Shown: piece after piece, positions 7,160-30,578 of the stretch
Numbering within the stretch: position 1 is the first letter of the stretch
Layout: every line of letters begins with the position of its first letter
IMG/VR virus record: IMGVR_UViG_3300012020_000005
Location: 1 to 64,000 of that record
DNA: 64,000 nucleotides
Reading direction: 5' to 3' (one strand)
Source: a virus
Taxonomy: Duplodnaviria; Caudoviricetes
Program-made: the position numbers and the translations under genes
The notes under the pieces: generated by a model
Seen by the model: only the letters and a program-made list of their open reading frames with translations
Database searches by the model: none
Told to the model about the DNA's origin: nothing

Positions 7160-7179
7160 TTACAACCAATATAACTAAT

Positions 7180-7210
7180 TTGCACAGTTCATTTTTATTT
7201 TGTATATTTG
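7180..7210 (+). promoter_or_regulatory. Bacteroidota-type promoter
   Basis: TTGCA at 7180 and TATATTTG at 7203. Confidence 0.75.
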
Positions 7211-7321
7211 TGACTTAATTGATAGAAGTCGAACACTATCATATACAAAACAGCCTCATTTAAAAGTAGTTATCTTTGTTCGACCCTTGAAGATAGTGAA
7301 ATTAGTGAGGCATTATTATTT
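7203..7321 (+). repeat. 119-bp exact direct repeat, copy 2
   Basis: Identical to 2462-2580; ends 9 bp before the homing endonuclease ATG. Confidence 0.95.
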
Positions 7322-16348: not shown

Positions 16349-16365
16349 GTAAATAGTAGTTTTGC

Positions 16366-16491
16366 CAATAACGGTATAGCTTGTAGCCGTATGCCAATAA
16401 AAACAAAACTAACTTAAAATTAAACACAATGAATACAAAACAAATTGAAAATTTAGCCGAAAACGGCAATAAGTCAAAACCGCTGCTATAA
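16366..16491 (+). repeat. attC-like site J1 (degenerate; GCT instead of GTT)
   Basis: CAATAAC at 16366-16372 ... GCTATAA at 16485; weak stem. Confidence 0.55.
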
Positions 16492-16501
16492 GCCGTTTTT
16501 T

Positions 16502-16765
16502 ATGATAGAATATTTTAACCGATATAGTAACACAGATTTACCAGATGATATGGGTAGATGGGCAAGAATAGCAATTTTTAAAAACATTAGAATTGCTTGG
16601 ATTAGCAGATTAGAAAATAAAGGAAAAGTTATATTTAGTGTTTCTTGCCATTTTCCAACTATGCAAAATGATACTGCAAATGAATACAAAATATGTCATT
16701 CATTAGATGAAGCAAAAGAGTTCGTCAATGAGCGTTGGAGTTGGTTTCTAACATCAGTTTCTTAA
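16502..16765 (+). CDS. hypothetical protein, cassette A
   Basis: Bracketed by GCTATAAGCCGTTTT (16485) and AAAATGGCTTATAAC (16764-16778). Confidence 0.65.
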   Translation: MIEYFNRYSNTDLPDDMGRWARIAIFKNIRIAWISRLENKGKVIFSVSCHFPTMQNDTANEYKICHSLDEAKEFVNERWSWFLTSVS

Positions 16766-16771
16766 AATGGC

Positions 16772-16864
16772 TTATAACGGTTGAGTATTGGCAAAATGCC
16801 ACCAGTACAAGCTTTCAAATTAGGCACAAACTATCTGTGGCATTTTGCCAATACTATGTTATAG
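16772..16864 (+). repeat. attC-like site J2
   Basis: AAC 16778; perfect 19-bp inverted repeat 16784-16802/16837-16855; GTT 16858. Confidence 0.85.
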
Positions 16865-16909
16865 GTAGTTGTTTTAAAAATTAGCGTTGGCATTAAAAAC
16901 ACAAACACA

Positions 16910-17092
16910 ATGGGAAATATGAGTTATTGCAGGTTTGAAAACACCTACGGAGATTTACAAGATTGCTACGATGCACTTGGAGAAAAATCATTAGATGAAC
17001 TTTCTGAAACAGAAAAAAAGTATGCAAAGAAGTTGATTAAAATGTGCAGAGAAATTGCTGATGATTTTTTGGAAGATGAAGATGATGAGTAA
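16910..17092 (+). CDS. hypothetical protein, cassette B
   Basis: MGNMSYCRFENT; bracketed by a 22-bp inverted repeat 16858-16879/17108-17129. Confidence 0.7.
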   Translation: MGNMSYCRFENTYGDLQDCYDALGEKSLDELSETEKKYAKKLIKMCREIADDFLEDEDDE

Positions 17093-17122
17093 CGGTGCGG
17101 TGGGGATTTTTAAAACAATTCC

Positions 17123-17258
17123 CTATAACTGTCTTCAACTTGCTCGTCGTTGTGGCGAATGAGCCTAAAACTTAACAAATAACAACTAAATTTTAAAATT
17201 ATGACCAAACTTTCAAACACAGACCCAATGCCCCAATGCGTGCAAACCGATGTTATAT
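17123..17258 (+). repeat. attC-like site J3
   Basis: AAC 17129; imperfect stem; GTT 17252. Confidence 0.7.
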
Positions 17259-17440
17259 GCTGTGATTTTTTCAAGCAAAATATCAAAGAATACGGATGGT
17301 TTAAATTAGACCATTTAGGAGAAGAACAATATTTAATGCCTCATATTTTAGGCACAAAAATTAGAATAAATTATTGTCCAACTTGTGGAAAAGAATGCAG
17401 GGATACTGTTTTAAGTACAGATTTGTATCATAGCATCTAA
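17201..17440 (+). CDS. hypothetical Cys-rich protein, cassette C
   Basis: ATG lies in J3; stop codon is the TAA of TAAC; CPTCG knuckle. Confidence 0.6.
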   Translation: MTKLSNTDPMPQCVQTDVICCDFFKQNIKEYGWFKLDHLGEEQYLMPHILGTKIRINYCPTCGKECRDTVLSTDLYHSI

Positions 17441-17569
17441 CGTTTTGCTACTACAAATCGTTTGGGATTAAGTAAACCAAAATATTCGAGTACTCACGAA
17501 TAAAAACAGGTACAAACTAATTTTTAAATTAATCACAGTTACCCAAATGTTTTGTAGTAGCTGTTATAA
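17435..17569 (+). repeat. attC-like site J4
   Basis: AAC 17441; 20-bp stem 17447-17466/17542-17561 with 2 mismatches; GTT 17563. Confidence 0.85.
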
Positions 17570-17581
17570 GTAGCTTTTATT

Positions 17582-17812
17582 ATGCTTACAATTAAATTAC
17601 TAAAAGAATTGATTAAAGACGTTCCAGATGATGCTATATTTTCTTCAATGCGTTTTGGAAATAATAACGAAATGGATTTTTTTGTTATTAAAAGAGCGTT
17701 ATTAGTTGAAGGTAGTAGAAATAAGTTTTTTGTGTTAAACCAAATGGGGACACATTGGGGAGAAAAATGGGAAAAAGGAGAATATAAAATAATTAAAACA
17801 ATAGAAAAATGA
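17582..17812 (+). CDS. hypothetical protein, cassette D gene 1
   Basis: Directly after core 17563. Confidence 0.6.
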   Translation: MLTIKLLKELIKDVPDDAIFSSMRFGNNNEMDFFVIKRALLVEGSRNKFFVLNQMGTHWGEKWEKGEYKIIKTIEK

Positions 17813-18030
17813 CACAAACAATAGAATGTAAATGTGGTAAAACTTTTGCCGCATCAGGAGTTCCTTATTGCTACACAAATGAGCAATGGCAAGAAGATTT
17901 AAGAGAATACGTAAAACAAGGTTGTACAGTTTCTTTAGTTGAAGATGATAAAGTACAATTTCAACAATGTACTTGCAATGAATTAGATGAACTTAAAGGC
18001 ATTTTCGACACCGTTGTTCTTTTGGAGTAG
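17809..18030 (+). CDS. hypothetical protein, cassette D gene 2
   Basis: ATGA overlap; ends before the inverse core 18041-18055. Confidence 0.6.
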   Translation: MTQTIECKCGKTFAASGVPYCYTNEQWQEDLREYVKQGCTVSLVEDDKVQFQQCTCNELDELKGIFDTVVLLE

Positions 18031-18048
18031 CGATTGTCCTAAAGTTAC

Positions 18049-18180
18049 TTATAACGTTAAGGTGCTTTGCAATATGGCGGTTTCAAGGCACTGCACCTTC
18101 AATTTAGAACTAATGTTTAATCAAGGCACTAACACTGAATTTTGCACTTCACCCGCCATATTGCAAAGCACGTGTTATAG
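18049..18180 (+). repeat. attC-like site J5
   Basis: AAC 18055; perfect 19-bp inverted repeat 18062-18080/18153-18171; GTT 18174. Confidence 0.85.
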
Positions 18181-18198
18181 CCAGTTAATTTTAATCAA

Positions 18199-18411
18199 AT
18201 GTCAAAATTAAATTTGTATCAAAGAAGAAAACAAGAGTGTGGTTATGTTCATGGGATGTACAAACCCGATAAAGCTGATTTTTATTTAATCAAGCAAAAT
18301 GTAGATGAGTATCTAATTGCTTATTTTGATGGGGAGTTTTGGGAAAGTAAAGTAGATAGGCTTATCTGTTGGAGAGAAATACCTAAATCGGATATTTTAG
18401 CTCCGTTTTAA
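18199..18411 (+). CDS. hypothetical protein, cassette E
   Basis: Bracketed by GTTATAGCCAGTTAA and TTAATTGGCTATAAC. Confidence 0.6.
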   Translation: MSKLNLYQRRKQECGYVHGMYKPDKADFYLIKQNVDEYLIAYFDGEFWESKVDRLICWREIPKSDILAPF

Positions 18412-18415
18412 TTGG

Positions 18416-18509
18416 CTATAACGTGATGCGTATATGAGAAGTGGCACTTGTAGAATGTTGAAATTTAGCACAAATGTTTATGTGCCATTTCTTATATACG
18501 CTGTTAGCA
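18416..18509 (+). repeat. attC-like site J6
   Basis: AAC 18422; 20-bp stem 18428-18447/18482-18501; GTT 18503. Confidence 0.85.
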
Positions 18510-18600
18510 GTAGTACGGATTTAAACCACAAATGCTCAATCAAAGAACTGAACCTTTTTCTTTTCTTTTTTGTGCGGTTGGAAAATAAAAAATTAAAAAT

Positions 18601-19422
18601 ATGATTGAGATAAATAAAAATTACAACGAAAGCAATTTAGAAACAATGGAGAAAATGCCTGATTGCTTTGTGGACTTAACGGTAACAAGCCCACCTTATG
18701 ATGGATTAAGAACATATAATGGTTATTCATTCCCTTTTGAGGATATTGCAAATGAGTTATTTAGAATTACAAAAGATGGTGGTGTATTAGTTTGGGTTGT
18801 TGGTGATGCAACTGTGAAAGGTAGTGAAAGTGGAACTAGTTTTAAACAAGCATTGTTTTTTAAAGAGGTAGGTTTTAATTTGCACGATACAATGATGTAT
18901 AGAAAGATAAACTACATACCATTAACACATAATAGATATGAGCAGGAGTTTGAGTATATGTTTATTTTTAGCAAAGGAAAGCCTAAAACCTTTAATCCAA
19001 TAATGGTTGAATGTAAAACAAAAGGAAGTAAAACAAAAGGCAGAACATTTTACCAAACAAATAGCCAAAATAAACCAACAGAAGCGCACAAAAACGATGC
19101 CGTAAAAGAATACAAACAAAAAGGAAATGTATGGGAAATACCTACTAATGCAGGCACAAAAGGACACCCCGCACAATTCCCTGAGCAATTAGCTAACGAC
19201 CATATTATATCATGGTCTAATGAAGGTGATTTAGTTTACGACCCATTCATGGGAAGCGGAACAACAGCAAAAATGAGTATCTTAAATAACCGTAATTGGA
19301 TTGGAAGCGAAATATCTTCTGAATACTGCGATATTATTGAAGAACGAATTAAAAAAGCGTGGGAAGAAAAAAGAAAAGAAAAAGATTTAACGCAGAAAAC
19401 TCTATTCGTAGATGGAATGTAG
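18601..19422 (+). CDS. beta-class DNA amino-methyltransferase (SPPY; possibly m4C), cassette F
   Basis: Motif IV DLTVTSPPY, GHPAQFP, motif I DPFMGSGTT. Confidence 0.9.
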   Translation: MIEINKNYNESNLETMEKMPDCFVDLTVTSPPYDGLRTYNGYSFPFEDIANELFRITKDGGVLVWVVGDATVKGSESGTSFKQALFFKEVGFNLHDTMMYRKINYIPLTHNRYEQEFEYMFIFSKGKPKTFNPIMVECKTKGSKTKGRTFYQTNSQNKPTEAHKNDAVKEYKQKGNVWEIPTNAGTKGHPAQFPEQLANDHIISWSNEGDLVYDPFMGSGTTAKMSILNNRNWIGSEISSEYCDIIEERIKKAWEEKRKEKDLTQKTLFVDGM

Positions 19423-19428
19423 TATTAC

Positions 19429-19561
19429 TGCTAACGGCACTTGGCTTGTGGTCAGGTGCGGAATTTGAAAAACAAAACTTAAAATATAGAACGAATGATG
19501 ATAGTAGAACAAATGTTGAATAACGCACCAACCCCGCTATTGCATATAGCCGATGTTAGTG
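19429..19561 (+). repeat. attC-like site J7
   Basis: AAC 19435; partial stem (GGTGCG/CGCACC); GTT 19555. Confidence 0.7.
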
Positions 19562-20286
19562 GCAGTGCTTTGTTCAATGCTGATTGTATGGATATTTTAC
19601 CTCTTATTCCTGATAAATCGGTTCAACTCATTTTGGCAGATTTGCCTTATGGAACTACTAATTTGAAATGGGATAGTGTGTTAGACCTAAACAAGTTGTG
19701 GCAAGAATACGAAAGAATAATTACTGATAATGGTGCAATAGTTTTAACAGCATCTCAGCCATTTACAACGGTTTTAATAAACTCAAATCCTGCATTATTC
19801 AAATATGAATGGATATGGTTAAAAGATAAACCAAACAACTTTGCACTTGCTAATAAAATGCCAATGAAATATCACGAAAACGTGTTGGTTTTTTATAAAA
19901 AACTGCCAAAATACAATAAGCAAATGGAAAAACGAGATGGTGGTGGAAAAAGGTATAAATATGCAGTAAACTATGAAAACCAACAAAGCGAACATTTAAC
20001 GCTAAAAAATGGTGCAAAGTTTTTTGATATGGAATTTAAAAACCCATCAAGTGTGCAAAAATTCTCAACAGGGAGAAGGCAGGATTTAAAACACCCAACA
20101 CAAAAACCGTTGGAAATGATGAAGTATTTTATTGCGACATATTCAGATGAAAACGATTATGTTCTTGACAATACAATGGGAGTAGGAACAACTTGCGTAG
20201 GAGCAAAGGAGTTGAACCGAAAGTTTATCGGGATTGAAAAAGAGGTAAAATATTATGACTTAGCAGTTGCTCGTGTGTTCGGGTAG
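19495..20286 (+). CDS. beta-class DNA amino-methyltransferase, cassette G
   Basis: LILADLPY, HPTQKP, DNTMGVGTT; start codon lies in J7. Confidence 0.9.
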   Translation: MMIVEQMLNNAPTPLLHIADVSGSALFNADCMDILPLIPDKSVQLILADLPYGTTNLKWDSVLDLNKLWQEYERIITDNGAIVLTASQPFTTVLINSNPALFKYEWIWLKDKPNNFALANKMPMKYHENVLVFYKKLPKYNKQMEKRDGGGKRYKYAVNYENQQSEHLTLKNGAKFFDMEFKNPSSVQKFSTGRRQDLKHPTQKPLEMMKYFIATYSDENDYVLDNTMGVGTTCVGAKELNRKFIGIEKEVKYYDLAVARVFG

Positions 20287-20292
20287 CATTGC

Positions 20293-20391
20293 CACTAACG
20301 TTTTGCGGCTTTGTGTCTGTTTGCCCCTTGCACATAGCTTCAATTTACCACAAATATTGATGGGGCAAATAGCACAAAACCGCTGTTATAA
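20293..20391 (+). repeat. attC-like site J8
   Basis: AAC 20299; stem 20305-20327/20362-20383; GTT 20385. Confidence 0.85.
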
Positions 20392-20461
20392 GCTGGCTGC
20401 GGTTAATTAAACGAAAATATAAATACGAAGAACAAAACAACTTTTAATAAATTTTTAAGCG

Positions 20462-20995
20462 ATGGGAATAGATAAAATAGGAAATAAGAAAAACTCATTT
20501 ACGAGTAATAGTATTGAATACAGCACACCTTTGGCGATAGTTCAGCCATTAATAAACGAATTTGGAATAACAAAAGATGTGTGTGCAAGCCAAACAAACC
20601 ATAAGTTACCTGACTATTGGAATAAAGAAGATAATGCTTTGACAAAGGATTGGATTGGTAACTGCTGGATGAACCCGCCATTTGATAGAAACTTGGCAAA
20701 GTGGGTAAGAAAAGCATCTGATGAAGCCGATAAAAATGGAGGAACAAAGGTTTGTTTGATACCTGTTAGGAGTAATACTAAATGGTGGGCTGAACTATCA
20801 ATAAAATCGGAAATTCGTTTTATCAATGGCGAAGTAAATTTCAATGATGAACCAAGAGGTTTATGGATGGGAATGTGTATAATCATATTCGGAGAAAAAG
20901 CTAAAAAAGGAACATTCAGTATTATTGATTACAGGAGCGTTGGCAAAAATTTATTAAAAGTTGAAACGGAATTGTCAAACGAAGCAGGAACGTAG
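20462..20995 (+). CDS. phage Dam-like N6-adenine methyltransferase, cassette H
   Basis: YSTP, DVCAS, CWMNPPF, LIPVRSNTKWW, IRFING. Confidence 0.85.
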   Translation: MGIDKIGNKKNSFTSNSIEYSTPLAIVQPLINEFGITKDVCASQTNHKLPDYWNKEDNALTKDWIGNCWMNPPFDRNLAKWVRKASDEADKNGGTKVCLIPVRSNTKWWAELSIKSEIRFINGEVNFNDEPRGLWMGMCIIIFGEKAKKGTFSIIDYRSVGKNLLKVETELSNEAGT

Positions 20996-21003
20996 CAGAT
21001 TGC

Positions 21004-21083
21004 TTATAATAGGCGCGCGCTTGGCGTCAGGCTTGTGAGCTTGCTCCAAGCGTGGAGTTGGGCGAAGGGCGCGCCTATTGGGC
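21004..21083 (+). repeat. attC-like site J9 (GC-rich; AAT/ATT variant ends)
   Basis: Perfect inverted repeat AATAGGCGCGC 21008-21018 / GCGCGCCTATT 21069-21079. Confidence 0.7.
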
Positions 21084-21110
21084 AAAGGTGCTGTGCGCCT
21101 TTTGCCCAAC
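21077..21110 (+). other. gene-less 34-bp mini-cassette I
   Basis: ATTGGGCAAAGG...CCTTTTGCCCAAC between J9 and J10. Confidence 0.6.
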
Positions 21111-21236
21111 GGTTTGGGGCTTTACGTAGTGGGGGATTATACCCACAAAAGCCCAATAGAATTACAAAAGTATAATAAAAGCACAAAAGTATGATAGAAG
21201 AACAAAAGCCCCCATTACGTAAAACCCCTGTTAGTA
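21104..21236 (+). repeat. attC-like site J10
   Basis: AAC 21110; 20-bp stem 21116-21135/21209-21228; GTT 21230. Confidence 0.85.
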
Positions 21237-21856
21237 GCAGTACGGGTAATAGTGATTGGTCTGGCAACAAAAATTCAATTTATAAAACGCTTGGGGCTTC
21301 CAACCATACGGATAAGGAACGCCAAAGTGAAGATTATTACGCAACTGAACCGAAAGCAGTTGAATTGCTTTTAGATTTAGAGGACTTTTCACAACTATAT
21401 GTTTGGGAATGTGCCTGTGGTCAAGGTCATTTATCGGAAGCAATGATAAAAAAAGGAATAAAAGTAAATTCAAGTGATTTAGTTTTAAGAGGATATGATA
21501 AGGCTTATATGTATGATTTTTTAAGCGAAGAAAACAAAGAGTGGAAAGGTCATATTATTACAAATCCACCTTATAAATTCGCAAAGGAATTTGTTTATAA
21601 AGCATTATCAATAGTTCCAAATGGTTGTAAAGTTGCAATGTTTCTAAAAGTTCAATTTTTAGAAGGTAAGGCACGAAAGAAACTATTTGAAATATATCCA
21701 CCTAAAACTGTTTACGTTTCAAGCAGTCGTTTATTATGTGCCAAAAATGGCGAATTTGAACAAATGATTGCTGGTGGTGGTTCGGCTGTTGCTTACGCTT
21801 GGTTCGTTTGGGAAAAAGGATTTAATGGTCAAACAGAATTACAATGGTTCAATTAG
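21191..21856 (+). CDS. DNA amino-methyltransferase (NPPY), cassette J
   Basis: DYYATEP, WECACGQGHLS, IITNPPY, AYAWFVW; start codon lies in J10. Confidence 0.85.
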   Translation: MIEEQKPPLRKTPVSSSTGNSDWSGNKNSIYKTLGASNHTDKERQSEDYYATEPKAVELLLDLEDFSQLYVWECACGQGHLSEAMIKKGIKVNSSDLVLRGYDKAYMYDFLSEENKEWKGHIITNPPYKFAKEFVYKALSIVPNGCKVAMFLKVQFLEGKARKKLFEIYPPKTVYVSSSRLLCAKNGEFEQMIAGGGSAVAYAWFVWEKGFNGQTELQWFN

Positions 21857-21875
21857 CAACGAATGGTAGTATTGC

Positions 21876-22006
21876 TACTAACGGACGGCGATTGTCGTGG
21901 TTGGGATAAAACAAAGACTGATAATTAAATTTAAAACTAAACTGAAAAATGAAAACAAATGTAAAAGTTAAAGACAAAACCCAATCACTACAATCGTATG
22001 TTAGTG
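21876..22006 (+). repeat. attC-like site J11
   Basis: AAC 21882; 17-bp stem from 21889 with 2 mismatches; GTT 22000. Confidence 0.8.
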
Positions 22007-22434
22007 TTTCGGTTACGGCTTCCGAGTTGCGAATAGGGAATTTAGTACACTTTCCTTTTACGGCAGAAAATGTAAAAGTATTAGGAATTAATGCTCGTGA
22101 ATATAAATCTGAAATAATTCATACAATCTCTTTTGAAAAAGGAACGAATTTATATTGTGAAAAGCCTTCTGTATTAAAACCTATCCCATTGTCGAATGAA
22201 TGGTTAGAAAAATTAGGATTTTATATTGTTTCTGATAATGAATATAAAACAAGATTTGATATTCTAAAAGAAGGCAGAATTGATTTTATAAGAGTAAAAC
22301 ACGAATTGTGTGATTCTGGAGTTCGGTTTGAAGGAGCTATGTTGAAAGGAATTGATTATGTACACCAATTGCAAAACTTCTATTTTATAATTACTGGCTC
22401 GGAATTGCAGATTGGTTCTATAACTGAACACTAA
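21949..22434 (+). CDS. hypothetical phage protein, cassette K
   Basis: ELRIGN...KPIPLSNEWLEKLGF...HQLQN; start in J11; stop is the TAA of TAAC. Confidence 0.7.
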   Translation: MKTNVKVKDKTQSLQSYVSVSVTASELRIGNLVHFPFTAENVKVLGINAREYKSEIIHTISFEKGTNLYCEKPSVLKPIPLSNEWLEKLGFYIVSDNEYKTRFDILKEGRIDFIRVKHELCDSGVRFEGAMLKGIDYVHQLQNFYFIITGSELQIGSITEH

Positions 22435-22483
22435 CGTTTTGCAGCTATGCGCTCGTTTTAATGGCGCATAGGTGCTGTTATGC
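22429..22483 (+). repeat. attC-like site J12 (shortest, 55 bp)
   Basis: AAC 22435; CTATGCGC/GCGCATAG stem; GTT 22477. Confidence 0.85.
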
Positions 22484-22544
22484 GCTGGCACGGTTGATTA
22501 AACGATAAACTTAAATTGAAACACAAAACAAAATTTTTATTAAA

Positions 22545-22763
22545 ATGAGCGAGGGTAAAAAAGCAAAAGAACTAATTGATAAGCACCGTAAATGGGTTAA
22601 TCAAATTGATGGCAGTTACTCCGAAACAGAGTATGCTAAAAAAGCTGCGCTTATTACCGTTAATGAAATTCTTGAAGTAGAAAGCAAGAAAATGATAAAC
22701 GGTGATGTGAATGAATATGATTATTGGGAACAAGTAAAAAAGAAAATAAATGGCAGTATTTGA
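22545..22763 (+). CDS. hypothetical protein, cassette L gene 1
   Basis: After core 22477. Confidence 0.6.
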   Translation: MSEGKKAKELIDKHRKWVNQIDGSYSETEYAKKAALITVNEILEVESKKMINGDVNEYDYWEQVKKKINGSI

Positions 22764-23271
22764 TAAAGAAAAATTGTTTGATGCAGAGAAGGTAAACAAA
22801 AGCCTTGAAAGCATTGTGTGGGGAACACCAACAGAGTTGTTTGCCCCGATTGATAAAGAGTTCAGATTTACACTTGACGTATGTGCAATATCAGAAAACG
22901 CAAAGTGTGAAAGGTTTTTTACACCACAAGATGACGGACTTGCCCAAAGTTGGGAGAATGAAGTTTGCTGGTGTAATCCACCATACGGGAAAGATGTAGT
23001 AAAGTGGTGTAAAAAAGCATTACAGGAAAGTAAAAGAGGGGCAACAACGGTATTGCTGATACCTTGCAAAACGAACACAAATTGGTGGCACGACTTTGTA
23101 ATACCTTATGCTGAAATTCGTTTTTTGCGTGGCAGAGTGGCTTTTGTTTACCCTAACGGAGAGCAGAGCAAACAAGCATTACCGTGGCCGCTTGCTTTTG
23201 TCATTTATCGTGGGTCGGAAGATTTTAATAAAAATTTTGAACCGCAAACTCTTTTTGGAAACGAAATGTAG
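22750..23271 (+). CDS. phage Dam-like N6-adenine methyltransferase, cassette L gene 2
   Basis: WGTP, FTLDVCA, WCNPPYG, EIRFLRGR. Confidence 0.85.
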   Translation: MAVFDKEKLFDAEKVNKSLESIVWGTPTELFAPIDKEFRFTLDVCAISENAKCERFFTPQDDGLAQSWENEVCWCNPPYGKDVVKWCKKALQESKRGATTVLLIPCKTNTNWWHDFVIPYAEIRFLRGRVAFVYPNGEQSKQALPWPLAFVIYRGSEDFNKNFEPQTLFGNEM

Positions 23272-23278
23272 TGCTTGC

Positions 23279-23409
23279 GTATAACGGCTACGGCTATGTG
23301 CAGTAGCGGATTTGAAACACAAAACTTAAAATTATGATACGAAGATTATTTGAAAAACTAAGGCTGATTAAACCACGTCAGCCGCACTTGCCACAAACCA
23401 ATGTTAGTG
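23279..23409 (+). repeat. attC-like site J13
   Basis: AAC 23285; partial stem; GTT 23403. Confidence 0.7.
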
Positions 23410-23588
23410 GCAGTTTTAAAGAGTGGTATTTAGAATTTCGCAACGAAATGGCAAAATCTTTTGGTGTTAATTATAGCATTTCTATTGCAAGTTGGACTTT
23501 TAGTGAAAATCATAAACACTATTACGATAGGGGACTTACACCAAAAGAGGCAGTATTGGAATATGCAGCGTCAAAAAATTGCCACTAA
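23334..23588 (+). CDS. hypothetical protein, cassette M
   Basis: Start in J13; stop is the TAA of TAAC. Confidence 0.6.
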   Translation: MIRRLFEKLRLIKPRQPHLPQTNVSGSFKEWYLEFRNEMAKSFGVNYSISIASWTFSENHKHYYDRGLTPKEAVLEYAASKNCH

Positions 23589-23719
23589 CGGTTAGTATAT
23601 GGAAAGTAGGCGATAGGAAGGTATGAACCAATGGAAGCCTAAACGACACACTAAAACAAGGACAAGAGCCTTGAAATGTTACCAAGTGTTTAGCCTATTT
23701 TTTATATACATTGTTATGT
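23583..23719 (+). repeat. attC-like site J14
   Basis: AAC 23589; GTATAT...TAGGC/GCCTA...ATATAC stem; GTT 23713. Confidence 0.8.
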
Positions 23720-23824
23720 ACTGTATAGTGACTTTTAAGCAATAAACTTTAATTAAAGAACGAAACTAAGTAATAATATTTTGTGCGGTGGCAAATTGCT
23801 GAGGCACGAAGCAAAACAAAGACA

Positions 23825-24799
23825 ATGATTAAACTATACAAAGGCGATTGCCTTATTGAAAGCGATAAAATAGAAAGTGGTAGTGTTGATTTGATATTAA
23901 CTGATTTGCCATTTGGTACTTTAAAAGGTGCTACATTGACAAGTTCAAAAACAAGAAACAATGAGTATTCTTGGGATAATATTATTGATACGAATAAAAT
24001 TTATAAGATAGCAAACAGAATACTTAGGAAAAACGGTAAAATGTTATTGTTTTGTCAAGAGCCATTTACAACTGAATTGATAAACAAAGCAATACCAAAT
24101 ATACCTTTAAGTTATAGAGCAATATGGGAAAAGAATGATTTTGCAAATTGTTTGTTTGCAAAAAAAGCAATGGTAAATTTTTACGAAGATATTCTAGTTT
24201 TTAGCAAAAATGAAGATACAGAAAAAGCACACCCTTTGAGAGAGTATTTTTATACTGAATACGAAAAAACAGGTTTGACCTATAAAGAAATAAACAGAGA
24301 TTATTTAGAAACCACTTTTGAAGGTGGCGGTGGAATGGCTTACAATATGCTTTGTAGAACACGTTTGTATTTTAGTATGCCAACAGAAGAGGCTTATAGT
24401 AGATTGCAGAAAACTGGATATTTTAAAAAGCCTTATGAAGAGCTTAAAATAGAAGACGAAGCGTTTAAAAACAAAATGAAAAGCACATTTAACCTTTGGG
24501 AAGGTAAAAAATACAAAAGTAATATACTTAAATACAAAAAAGATTATGATGGCTACCACCCAACGCAAAAGCCAGTTTTATTGTTAGAGGACTTAATAAA
24601 AACTTTTAGCAACGAAAATGATTTAGTAGTTGATTTAACTATGGGTTCTGGTAGCACTATGGTAGCCTGCAAAAACACCAATAGAAACGGAATAGGTATT
24701 GAAATGAATGACGAGTATTTTAGTATTGCTGAGAAAAGGGTGGAAAAAAATATTATTACGACTGGTGAGCAAACAAGTATATTAGACGAACTGAACTAA
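23825..24799 (+). CDS. beta-class DNA amino-methyltransferase, cassette N
   Basis: LILTDLPF, YHPTQKP, DLTMGSGST; ATG 23825 preferred over the track start at 23783. Confidence 0.9.
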   Translation: MIKLYKGDCLIESDKIESGSVDLILTDLPFGTLKGATLTSSKTRNNEYSWDNIIDTNKIYKIANRILRKNGKMLLFCQEPFTTELINKAIPNIPLSYRAIWEKNDFANCLFAKKAMVNFYEDILVFSKNEDTEKAHPLREYFYTEYEKTGLTYKEINRDYLETTFEGGGGMAYNMLCRTRLYFSMPTEEAYSRLQKTGYFKKPYEELKIEDEAFKNKMKSTFNLWEGKKYKSNILKYKKDYDGYHPTQKPVLLLEDLIKTFSNENDLVVDLTMGSGSTMVACKNTNRNGIGIEMNDEYFSIAEKRVEKNIITTGEQTSILDELN

Positions 24800-24866
24800 G
24801 CTATATTGTACATAACTATTTACTAAGCGTTACTAAAGAGGTAAAACACTAATAAAATTAAGACTT

Positions 24867-28991: not shown

Positions 28992-30578
28992 ATGGGTAAA
29001 AAAAAGTATACACAAGAACAGATTGACTTTGTAACTAATTTGATTAAATTAAACGACTATAAAGTTACTCCTGCCACAATACTAATGTGTGAAAAGTTTA
29101 AGATAGACTACAATGAAAATGTAGGGAGAAGATTTAGAAAAATTATGCAAAAAATTGGAGTTACAAATAATGTAGTCACAATAGAAGATACTGATGTTTT
29201 TAAAGAAGCTCAAAATAAACAACACGATAACACTAAAAAAAGATACCTTATTAGTTGGGGACAATCAGATACAGCAATACATAAAAGGTTTCTTAAAAAT
29301 ATGGAAAACTATGCTGAATATATAGATGCTGACATATTAATAATCGCAGGTAGGTATTCCAATCCATCATCTTTATCTGCAAGTAAAGCTATAAAATCAA
29401 AAGAAAAAACTGTAAAAAATACATGGGATAACTCTATATTACCATATCTTGATGCAAATCGTCATAATTTACATGAACATTTAGTAGTCTTATCGGACGT
29501 CAAAATCCAACCTACAGCTTCTACACCACTTTCTTCATTAAATGGTCTTACAGGACTTGAAAGTTGTATTATAGGGCATCCTAGACAACATTTAAAGTTT
29601 CTACCTGTTTTAGATGGTTATCCAAGTAAAGTTTTATTAACTACAGGAGCATGTACAATTGAAAACTACACTGATACAAAAATTGGAAAATCGAGCGAAT
29701 TTAATCATGTTTTGGGATGTGTTATAGTTGAGTTAGATGGAGATATTTTTCATATTCGTCAAATTTGCGCTGATAAAAAAGGAGATTTTTATGACTTAAA
29801 TTACAAAGTCGAGCACGGTAATATCTATACTAATGACAAAATTGAAGTTGCTGTTCTTGGTGATATTCATTTAACGAGCGAAGACAAGGAAAGTGTAGAT
29901 GTTTCTTTTAGTATTTTAGAAAAATTTAAACCAAATCATGTTATTTTACACGATATTGCAGATATGTCGAGTATTAGCCACCATGAAAAACGTAATCCAT
30001 TTCAGCTTTTAATAAGAGAAGAAGATGGTTCTAATTCTTTAGAAAAAGAGTTAGATTATATCAGGAATTGGTTTAAAAATAGACCTGTATATAATTATGT
30101 TATTCCAAGTGCCAACCATAACAACTTCATTGACAGGTGGTTACAAAATGAAGATTGGCGAAAAGATGGGAATAAAAAACTTTATTTAGAGTTTGCTAAT
30201 ATAACCGCTAAAGGATTAGCTCCAAAAGGTATTATTGCCTATATTTTAGAGTCAGAGTTTGATTATATTAAATGCTTAGGTGTAGATGAATCTTATAATG
30301 TTTTGGGGTGGGAGTTGAGCCTTCATGGAGACAGAGGCGCATCAGGAAGTCGTGGTTCAGCAGTTCAATTTAAAAATCTTAATGTTAAGAATGTTACAGG
30401 ACACACTCATAGTGGTTTAAAACTAGATGGTCATTTATGTGTTGGTACATTAACTAAACTCAGAATGGGATATAATCTTGGAATGTCCTCATGGTCGGTT
30501 TCAAATGTAGTTATTTATCCTAATGGAAAAGCTCAACATATTCATATAACGAGAGGTAAGTATACTACTTTCTTTTAA
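28992..30578 (+). CDS. calcineurin-like metallophosphoesterase with N-terminal extension
   Basis: LGDIH, LHDIAD, SANHN, LHGD, TGHTH metal-binding motifs. Confidence 0.8.
   Translation: MGKKKYTQEQIDFVTNLIKLNDYKVTPATILMCEKFKIDYNENVGRRFRKIMQKIGVTNNVVTIEDTDVFKEAQNKQHDNTKKRYLISWGQSDTAIHKRFLKNMENYAEYIDADILIIAGRYSNPSSLSASKAIKSKEKTVKNTWDNSILPYLDANRHNLHEHLVVLSDVKIQPTASTPLSSLNGLTGLESCIIGHPRQHLKFLPVLDGYPSKVLLTTGACTIENYTDTKIGKSSEFNHVLGCVIVELDGDIFHIRQICADKKGDFYDLNYKVEHGNIYTNDKIEVAVLGDIHLTSEDKESVDVSFSILEKFKPNHVILHDIADMSSISHHEKRNPFQLLIREEDGSNSLEKELDYIRNWFKNRPVYNYVIPSANHNNFIDRWLQNEDWRKDGNKKLYLEFANITAKGLAPKGIIAYILESEFDYIKCLGVDESYNVLGWELSLHGDRGASGSRGSAVQFKNLNVKNVTGHTHSGLKLDGHLCVGTLTKLRMGYNLGMSSWSVSNVVIYPNGKAQHIHITRGKYTTFF

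Follow-up and report, generated by a model that had tools for sequence, protein, structure and literature searches.

Our analysis indicates, at a probability of roughly 0.7, that a block of small genes in a tailed-virus genome (Duplodnaviria; Caudoviricetes) is a phage-borne integron-type cassette array with attC-like sites, no integrase of its own, and mainly orphan DNA methyltransferases as cargo. The stretch analyzed (here, the window) comprises positions 1 to 64,000 of the IMG/VR virus record IMGVR_UViG_3300012020_000005. Between positions 16485 and 24816, it holds 14 cassettes (here, A to N, with hairpins J0 to J13), which lie head to tail with hairpins between the genes. These hairpins have the form TAAC-G(~4 nt)-stem(~20 bp)-loop-stem-T-GTTA. 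When the junctions were examined as attC-like palindromes, 12 of 14 showed TAAC-G, an ungapped stem of 10 to 19 bp, and T-GTTA, with J2 and J0 being weak. The two ends of each cassette form an inverted repeat that is private to that cassette, and it is well supported by sequence comparison that this repeat represents the two halves of one recombination site, which would be rejoined only in an excised circle. We class the array as a variant of the integron kind, not as a new kind.

The private repeat had been noticed in a first-pass annotation of the same DNA, according to which the 5' core of a cassette pairs with its own 3' inverse core and not with the neighboring hairpin. We located 15 junctions from the hairpins alone (TAAC-G...stem...T-GTTA) before comparing cassette ends, and pairing was scored over positions 5 to 16, that is, outside the shared GTTA/TAAC core. 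Cognate 5' and 3' ends of the 14 cassettes agree at 9.1 of 12 positions, compared with 4.0 of 12 (standard deviation, 1.8) for noncognate ends and 3.5 of 12 for the two ends adjoining the same integrated hairpin. In 100,000 permutations of the cassette partners, the observed sum of matches was never reached, and the ends of a cassette match far better than expected by chance. The repeat is present in all 14 cassettes, and each of the eight examples quoted in the annotation was recovered with the same score (B, 20/22; D, 14/15; E, 14/15; F, 13/14; G, 14/15; J, 13/14; M, 14/15; N, 14/16). Likewise, pairing does run past the canonical 7 bp, with a stem of ~15 bp (24 bp in cassette B).

Folding with DNA parameters gave the same picture. 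The cognate outer stem has an energy of -10.2 kcal/mol on the + strand and -9.1 kcal/mol on the - strand, compared with -3.1 ± 1.65 kcal/mol for noncognate ends and -2.85 kcal/mol for pairs at integrated junctions. When cassettes are circularized in silico, a check that the annotation had proposed, the sites become more stable than the integrated junctions by ~6 kcal/mol (+ strand) and 4.3 kcal/mol (- strand). The gene-sense (+) strand folds better than the - strand. A feature absent from the annotation is that the “mismatch” of nearly every pair is identical, namely, a G of the 5' arm opposite a T of the 3' arm at bp 11 on the gene-sense strand. This G·T wobble occurs at bp 11 in 13 of the 14 window cassettes; in cassette K, a one-base bulge displaces it outward by one position. 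Across 39 distinct cassettes from nine loci, a set chosen by repeat score in which the amount of pairing is inflated, bp 5 to 9 and 12 to 15 of the end-to-end stem include each of the four Watson-Crick pairs and thus covary; G·T is found at bp 11 in 38 cassettes, A·T at bp 10 in 29, and T·A at bp 12 in 32. The G·T count is not inflated by this selection, because a Watson-Crick pair would have scored higher. Only strict-core matches inside arrays were retained in the search for repeats; automatic chain-walking at a loose threshold produced chance runs through AT-rich DNA and was discarded. The spacer of the site has 5 nt opposite 1 nt.

Inverted repeats that flank each gene might also mark miniature transposons, each gene being bounded by terminal inverted repeats recognized by a transposase. 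However, transposase ends are common to the copies and not private, and here only the GTTA/TAAC core and the motif at bp 10 to 12 are common. Furthermore, there is no target duplication besides the shared core, the units occur only head to tail in arrays with hairpins between them, and no transposase is common to the phages. We consider this explanation extremely improbable.

In Flavobacterium phages filifjonk and mymlan (L010 and L011), a 506-bp insertion lies between flanks that are 100% identical. The insert consists of a new hairpin, the 5' arm (R') GTTATGCAATCGG, a gene, and the 3' arm (R'') CTGTTGCATAAC. It separates the preceding TAAC from the old hairpin, and TAACGTT is duplicated at its two ends, with boundaries at TAAC|GTT. 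Hairpin J7 and the cassette H arms are found after three different upstream cassettes, J7 staying with the downstream R', and an intact G-type hairpin recurs with a G-type methyltransferase in L014 and L016 to L018, behind four different upstream ends. Because of the 506-bp indel, these two linkages, and the open reading frames (ORFs) that start within hairpins, the crossover is placed at TAA|C on the gene-sense strand, which is G|TT on the other strand, and the cassette consists of a gene and its upstream hairpin. The annotation had put the cut at G|TT on the + strand, which is the wrong side, since the 506-bp indel assigns the upstream and not the downstream hairpin to the cassette. Its argument for a circle survives this error because a private repeat follows in either polarity. 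With the crossover at G|TT of the complementary strand, the chemistry can be that of the integron even though gene polarity is reversed.

In one cassette, the halves of the site also travel independently of the gene between them. The hairpin, R', and R'' of cassette H enclose an unrelated gene in L010 (8181 to 8964) and L011 (6184 to 6967). Comparison of window positions 20300 to 21010 with these two phages shows that the hairpin, the 5' arm plus ~45 nt, and the last 42 nt are common (88 to 90% identical), whereas the cargo between those ends differs: the window has a Dam-like methyltransferase, and the Muminvirus phages have an unrelated protein of 218 residues. The site halves of cassette H are inherited together, independent of cargo. 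Cassettes with different neighbors, for which the annotation had recommended a search, were found in related phage contigs and in L010/L011.

In our proposed mechanism, the mobile unit would be 5'-[hairpin: G + ~4 unpaired nt + ~20-bp stem + loop + stem + T]-[GTTA + ~11 private nt]-gene-[~11 private nt + TAA]-3'. Excision as a circle would bring the private arms together across the hairpin as one long, folded single-strand site, in which a 15-bp outer stem with the obligatory G·T at bp 11 is followed by a bulge of 5 nt opposite 1 nt and then by the inner stem of 20 bp and its loop. This site would be split on insertion at TAA|C, and the cassette's own arms would then flank its gene as the private inverted repeat. 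The annotation's suggestion that each unit moved as an intact module with a circular intermediate is retained in part: pairing and covariation argue for two halves of one site, while the circle itself is inferred and the linkage of hairpin and gene is not absolute.

Array content differs between close relatives. Contigs L001 and L003 match the window up to position 16366 and then continue with TTTTGCCCAAC and with other hairpins and cassettes. Contigs that are 92 to 99% identical in the flanks hold different cassettes after the same left boundary, which shows at the sequence level that cassettes have evidently been gained and lost between near-identical phages. A search of viral contigs with the left boundary found only the contig already known, a search with the right boundary found nothing, and distant relatives of the upstream gene (L005 and L006) have no hairpins downstream. 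A candidate cassette, “X1,” was rejected as an instance of the same cassette with other neighbors, as L003 and the Muminvirus phages share only ~55 nt.

Hairpins J6 (19436 to 19554) and J12 (23286 to 23402) have exchanged arms and similar loops. The combinations J12-left/J6-right and J6-left/J12-right have energies of -17.9 and -14.9 kcal/mol, respectively, versus -12.0 and -6.4 kcal/mol for the hairpins in place. Each of the two forms without the swap is present in river metagenome contigs, where the only joints used were those flanked by 31 letters or more on both sides. The block from cassette G to cassette L looks like a multicassette circle that entered through similar loops into the hairpin belonging to cassette M.

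Several observations weigh against a purely modular, site-specific exchange or limit how far it can be taken. The J6 and J12 chimeras are best explained by recombination inside similar loops, so ordinary homologous exchange also reshapes the arrays, alongside the site-specific route. Cassette F shares only the segment from R' to R'' with its mymlan homolog (L011, 5284 to 6183), both flanking hairpins being different, and one metagenome contig runs from hairpin J5 into another cassette (loose end at 18506). The circular cassettes and the recombinase that would act on the sites are both inferred, and the phage record is only ~57% complete by estimate. To these we add the choice of the 39 cassettes by repeat score, mentioned above, and two points on the recombinase, namely, that an array and a recombinase were not found together in G210, G161, and G290 (see below) and that P12002L_attC1, a hairpin of the present family and its only tested member, was the single site of six that IntI1 did not recombine (Qi et al. 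2023, PMC9892861).

Taken further, the same observations could mean that the arrays are shuffled by ordinary homology or microhomology with no dedicated site-specific recombinase, the hairpins being shared regulatory elements (5' untranslated regions [UTRs] or terminators) as proposed for the promoter-early stem-loop (PeSL) cassettes of T4-type phages. The arm swap between J6 and J12, with its similar loops and its unswapped counterparts in metagenome contigs, would fit such shuffling, the 7-bp TAACGTT at both ends of the 506-bp indel could act as microhomology, and the phages encode no recombinase. In river metagenomes, hairpins are 10 to 50 times deeper than gene bodies (two runs compared with the array), which indicates many contexts. 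However, shuffling by homology gives no reason for pairing between a cassette's own ends, for covariation, or for a G·T pair kept at bp 11; breakpoints fall at the cores and not across the longer conserved loops; and bacterial arrays of the same sites adjoin a tyrosine recombinase. Homologous shuffling with no dedicated enzyme is, in our judgment, unlikely, and an integron-type array would account for the private repeat.

No tyrosine recombinase (PF00589) was found in the 81-kb record or in three complete array-bearing phage genomes. The same family of sites, however, exists in arrays on Bacteroidota chromosomes. In the 267-kb bacterial contig G050 (array region L050, G050:C28:108000-127999), at least 10 hairpins of the family follow a co-oriented 310-residue tyrosine recombinase (L050, 4276 to 5208), and the cassettes encode SUKH-1, an OLD-like nuclease (ATPase/TOPRIM), and other proteins, a cargo that looks defensive or immunity related. 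In G010, a homolog that is 47% identical to the G050 recombinase and a similar array are divergently oriented. The G050 enzyme has its best score as an Xer-type recombinase (NF040815), reaches 197 bits against the 265-bit cutoff of TIGR02249, and is 31% identical to a true IntI, the alignment having a gap of 36 residues in place of the IntI-specific insertion. A recombinase lies beside the array in G050, G010, and G186 and at a distance of 17 kb in G001. True IntI is encoded in 113 of 401 Bacteroidota genomes and, because of this frequency in the phylum, remains an alternative enzyme. In six true-IntI neighborhoods, no hairpins of the family were detected by an ungapped hairpin scan, a result of little weight because such a scan would miss ordinary attC sites. 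When the 401 genomes were searched with an IUPAC pattern, hits were overall no more numerous than with a reversed-pattern control, and only hits that visibly belong to the hairpin family were followed up.

In G050 and G010, the genes and the G·T wobbles are on opposite strands, as expected for normal integron polarity. This arrangement bears on the possibility that the stems are an RNA-level feature, folding in polycistronic mRNA (with G·U at bp 11) for processing, stability, or translational control, with mobility being incidental. Such a role would fit the phage arrays, where the G·T (G·U) strand is the mRNA sense strand and folds better and where ribosome sites and start codons lie in the loops. 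In the G050 and G010 arrays, however, the wobble strand is antisense to the genes, so that polarity is conserved with respect to the DNA site and not to the message. In addition, homology and indel breakpoints coincide with the cores, and an Rfam scan of the region matched no family, giving only subthreshold microRNA-hairpin matches that are meaningless here. We regard a feature of RNA alone as very improbable.

The enzyme acting on the phage arrays would be supplied by the host. We propose that exchange takes place on folded single-stranded DNA and is carried out by a host Xer-like tyrosine recombinase of the kind found beside the bacterial arrays, with the conserved ATTnnnnnTAA arm as the putative binding arm of that recombinase. 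The phages would use the system in reversed gene polarity, with the ribosome site, the start codon, and ~20 initial codons supplied by the hairpin loop. For its final suggestion, a related but distinct mechanism, the annotation receives indirect support from the failure of IntI1 on P12002L_attC1 and from an array-adjacent recombinase that lacks the IntI-specific domain. Clusters of attC sites without an integrase and with methyltransferase cargo have been described in virulent phages (Qi et al. 2023, PMC9892861). In a limited literature search on Flavobacterium phage repeats and Bacteroidota integrons, we found no publication that described an extended arm, the wobble, a reversed polarity, or an Xer-like neighbor.

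The same architecture is present in two contigs of near-identical phages (with other cassettes after the same left boundary), in cultured Flavobacterium siphoviruses of the genus Muminvirus, in Polaribacter phage P12002L (L012, NC_028924), and in contigs binned with Bacteroidota and other metagenome-assembled genomes. Three phage groups have only cassette proteins in common and share no noncassette protein. Parts of the array were found in wastewater, river, and freshwater metagenome runs from 12 studies, and the excess depth of the hairpins implies that hairpin families are common to many more cassettes than are seen here. Both methyltransferase arrays of P12002L (- strand, near 29240 and 37300) end in the same ~65-nt element, TAAC|AACGGATAAAACAAGTTTTACC..., which may be an insertion (attI-like) site. 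This terminal element is the attC2 that IntI1 recombined at G|TTAGGC (Qi et al. 2023, PMC9892861), a position equal to TAA|C on the gene strand.

All 14 cassettes of the window are on the + strand. The left boundary of the array, TTTTGCCAATAAC, is at 16361 to 16372, and near-identical phage contigs diverge from the window about here. Cassette A (16373 to 16778) has the degenerate hairpin J0 (16373 to 16484) and arms at 16485 to 16499 and 16764 to 16778. Hairpin J1 of cassette B (16779 to 17129) has a perfect 19-bp stem, and the 24-nt arms (16858 to 16881 and 17106 to 17129) match at 92%. In cassette C (17130 to 17441), with the weak hairpin J2, the ORF starts at 17201 in the junction, upstream of R' (17252). 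Cassette D (17442 to 18055; hairpin J3; arms, 17563 to 17577 and 18041 to 18055) contains two small ORFs, and cassette E (18056 to 18422; arms, 18174 to 18188 and 18408 to 18422) begins with J4, another hairpin with a perfect 19-bp stem. Cassette F (18423 to 19435; hairpin J5; arms, 18503 to 18516 and 19422 to 19435) encodes an N6_N4 DNA methyltransferase at 18601 to 19422. The N6_N4 methyltransferase ORF of cassette G (19436 to 20299; arms, 19555 to 19569 and 20285 to 20299) starts at 19495 in the loop of the chimeric hairpin J6. Cassette H (20300 to 21010; hairpin J7; arms, 20385 to 20399 and 20996 to 21010, ending in TAAT) encodes the Dam-like methyltransferase at 20462 to 20995.

Cassette I (21011 to 21110) is empty, the GC-rich hairpin J8 being followed only by two arms (21077 to 21110) that are 8 to 9 nt apart. 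Its R'' (CCTTTTGCCCAAC) is similar to the left boundary of the array in related contigs (GTTTTGCCCAAC). In cassette J (21111 to 21882; hairpin J9; arms, 21230 to 21243 and 21869 to 21882), the loop contains the start (21191) of a methyltransferase-like ORF (phrog_799), and in cassette K (21883 to 22435), the one with the bulged arms, an ORF starts at 21949 in the loop of J10. The short hairpin J11 (41 nt) opens cassette L (22436 to 23285; arms, 22477 to 22491 and 23271 to 23285), which holds a small ORF and a Dam-like methyltransferase (22750 to 23271). Cassette M (23286 to 23589; arms, 23403 to 23417 and 23575 to 23589) has the chimeric hairpin J12 with an ORF start at 23334 in the loop. Cassette N (23590 to 24816; hairpin J13; arms, 23713 to 23728 and 24801 to 24816) encodes an N6_N4 methyltransferase (23783 to 24799), and the array ends on the right with the R'' of this cassette, with no hairpin after it. 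Six cassette genes are DNA methyltransferases or methyltransferase-like, and in five cassettes, the ORF begins within the upstream hairpin. Where an ORF starts in a hairpin loop (positions 17252, 19555, 21230, 22000, and 23403), the core GTT is in frame and encodes Val, and the private arm encodes the residues that follow (VSGS, VSSS, and VSVS).

The window covers the first 64 kb of a viral record of 81.5 kb. Its G+C content is ~29% and rises to 33 to 36% between 16.4 and 24.8 kb. Its small genes are on one strand, and it includes a replication module (a family A polymerase, a DnaB-like helicase, an exonuclease, and a PD-(D/E)XK nuclease). We take the host to be of the Flavobacteria type. A solitary TATAAC...GTTATC hairpin candidate (7173 to 7269; 96 nt, 10-bp stem) lies outside the array, between two ORFs of the replication module.

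The private repeat provides the cleanest sequence-only evidence for movement of these phage genes as discrete circular units, and it fixes the limits of the unit. A block that would be annotated as hypothetical proteins and methyltransferases becomes a defined exchange system for anti-restriction genes, found in cultured Flavobacterium and Polaribacter phages and in metagenomes. If the site needs a different recombinase, this may explain the failure of IntI1 on P12002L_attC1. The system also suggests that such arrays are undercounted by surveys based on integrases or on attC models. More tentatively, and with somewhat less than even odds, Bacteroidota and their phages may possess a separate integron-like system, defined by an 11- to 15-bp outer arm with the G·T wobble and by an Xer-like recombinase without the IntI domain. 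Phages might borrow this enzyme in reversed polarity, with the hairpin doubling as 5' UTR and N-terminal coding sequence, and anti-restriction methyltransferases might be shuffled during infection.

Among known systems, the integron is one of the closest. As in attC, the site is an imperfect palindrome with AAC...GTT cores, the crossover is beside the core, and the 5' remnant matches the cassette's own inverse core; in 1991-92, Hall and co-workers reportedly located the crossover and predicted circular cassettes by the same remnant argument. In a canonical attC, the R box is ~7 bp long, the unpaired spacer at the center is roughly symmetric, and the L box contains extrahelical bases, whereas the present site has an outer stem of ~15 bp, G·T at bp 11, and a 5-nt bulge opposite 1 nt. 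In integrons, attC is downstream of the gene and its top strand is the gene-sense strand, a polarity found in G050 and G010 but not in the phage arrays, where the hairpin is upstream and provides the start codon. A complete integron has an adjacent IntI with an additional domain, while the G050 neighbor lacks this insertion of ~36 residues. Head-to-tail order, content that varies between close relatives, and methyltransferase cargo in phages are shared with integron arrays, whereas IntI1 did not recombine the family member P12002L_attC1, which had been predicted as an attC (PMC9892861).

With Xer/dif systems, the arrays share the candidate enzyme of the G050 type, whose best score is as an Xer-type recombinase (NF040815). 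An Xer/dif-type site has two 11-bp recombinase arms around a central region of 6 to 8 bp. The conserved 11-nt 3' arm ATTnnnnnTAA, with its outer ATT and inner TAA, may resemble the XerD arm of Escherichia coli dif on the other strand. Xer enzymes can use a folded single strand, as in the integration of CTX phage attP(+), and in the pdif modules of Acinetobacter plasmids, Xer/dif-type sites flank the modules. In contrast, no dif-like double-stranded 28-bp site is present here, and the arrays are long and have private arms. The PeSLs are reportedly mobile cassettes of T4-type phages, for which ORF minicircles are said to have been proposed (Arbiol and co-workers, 2010); their near-identical repeats are thought to recombine by homology. 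As with PeSLs, stem-loops with expression signals lie between small genes in a hyperplastic phage region. PeSLs, however, have neither end-to-end pairing nor AAC/GTT cores, whereas the stems described here are private and diverse, with only the loop families being shared.

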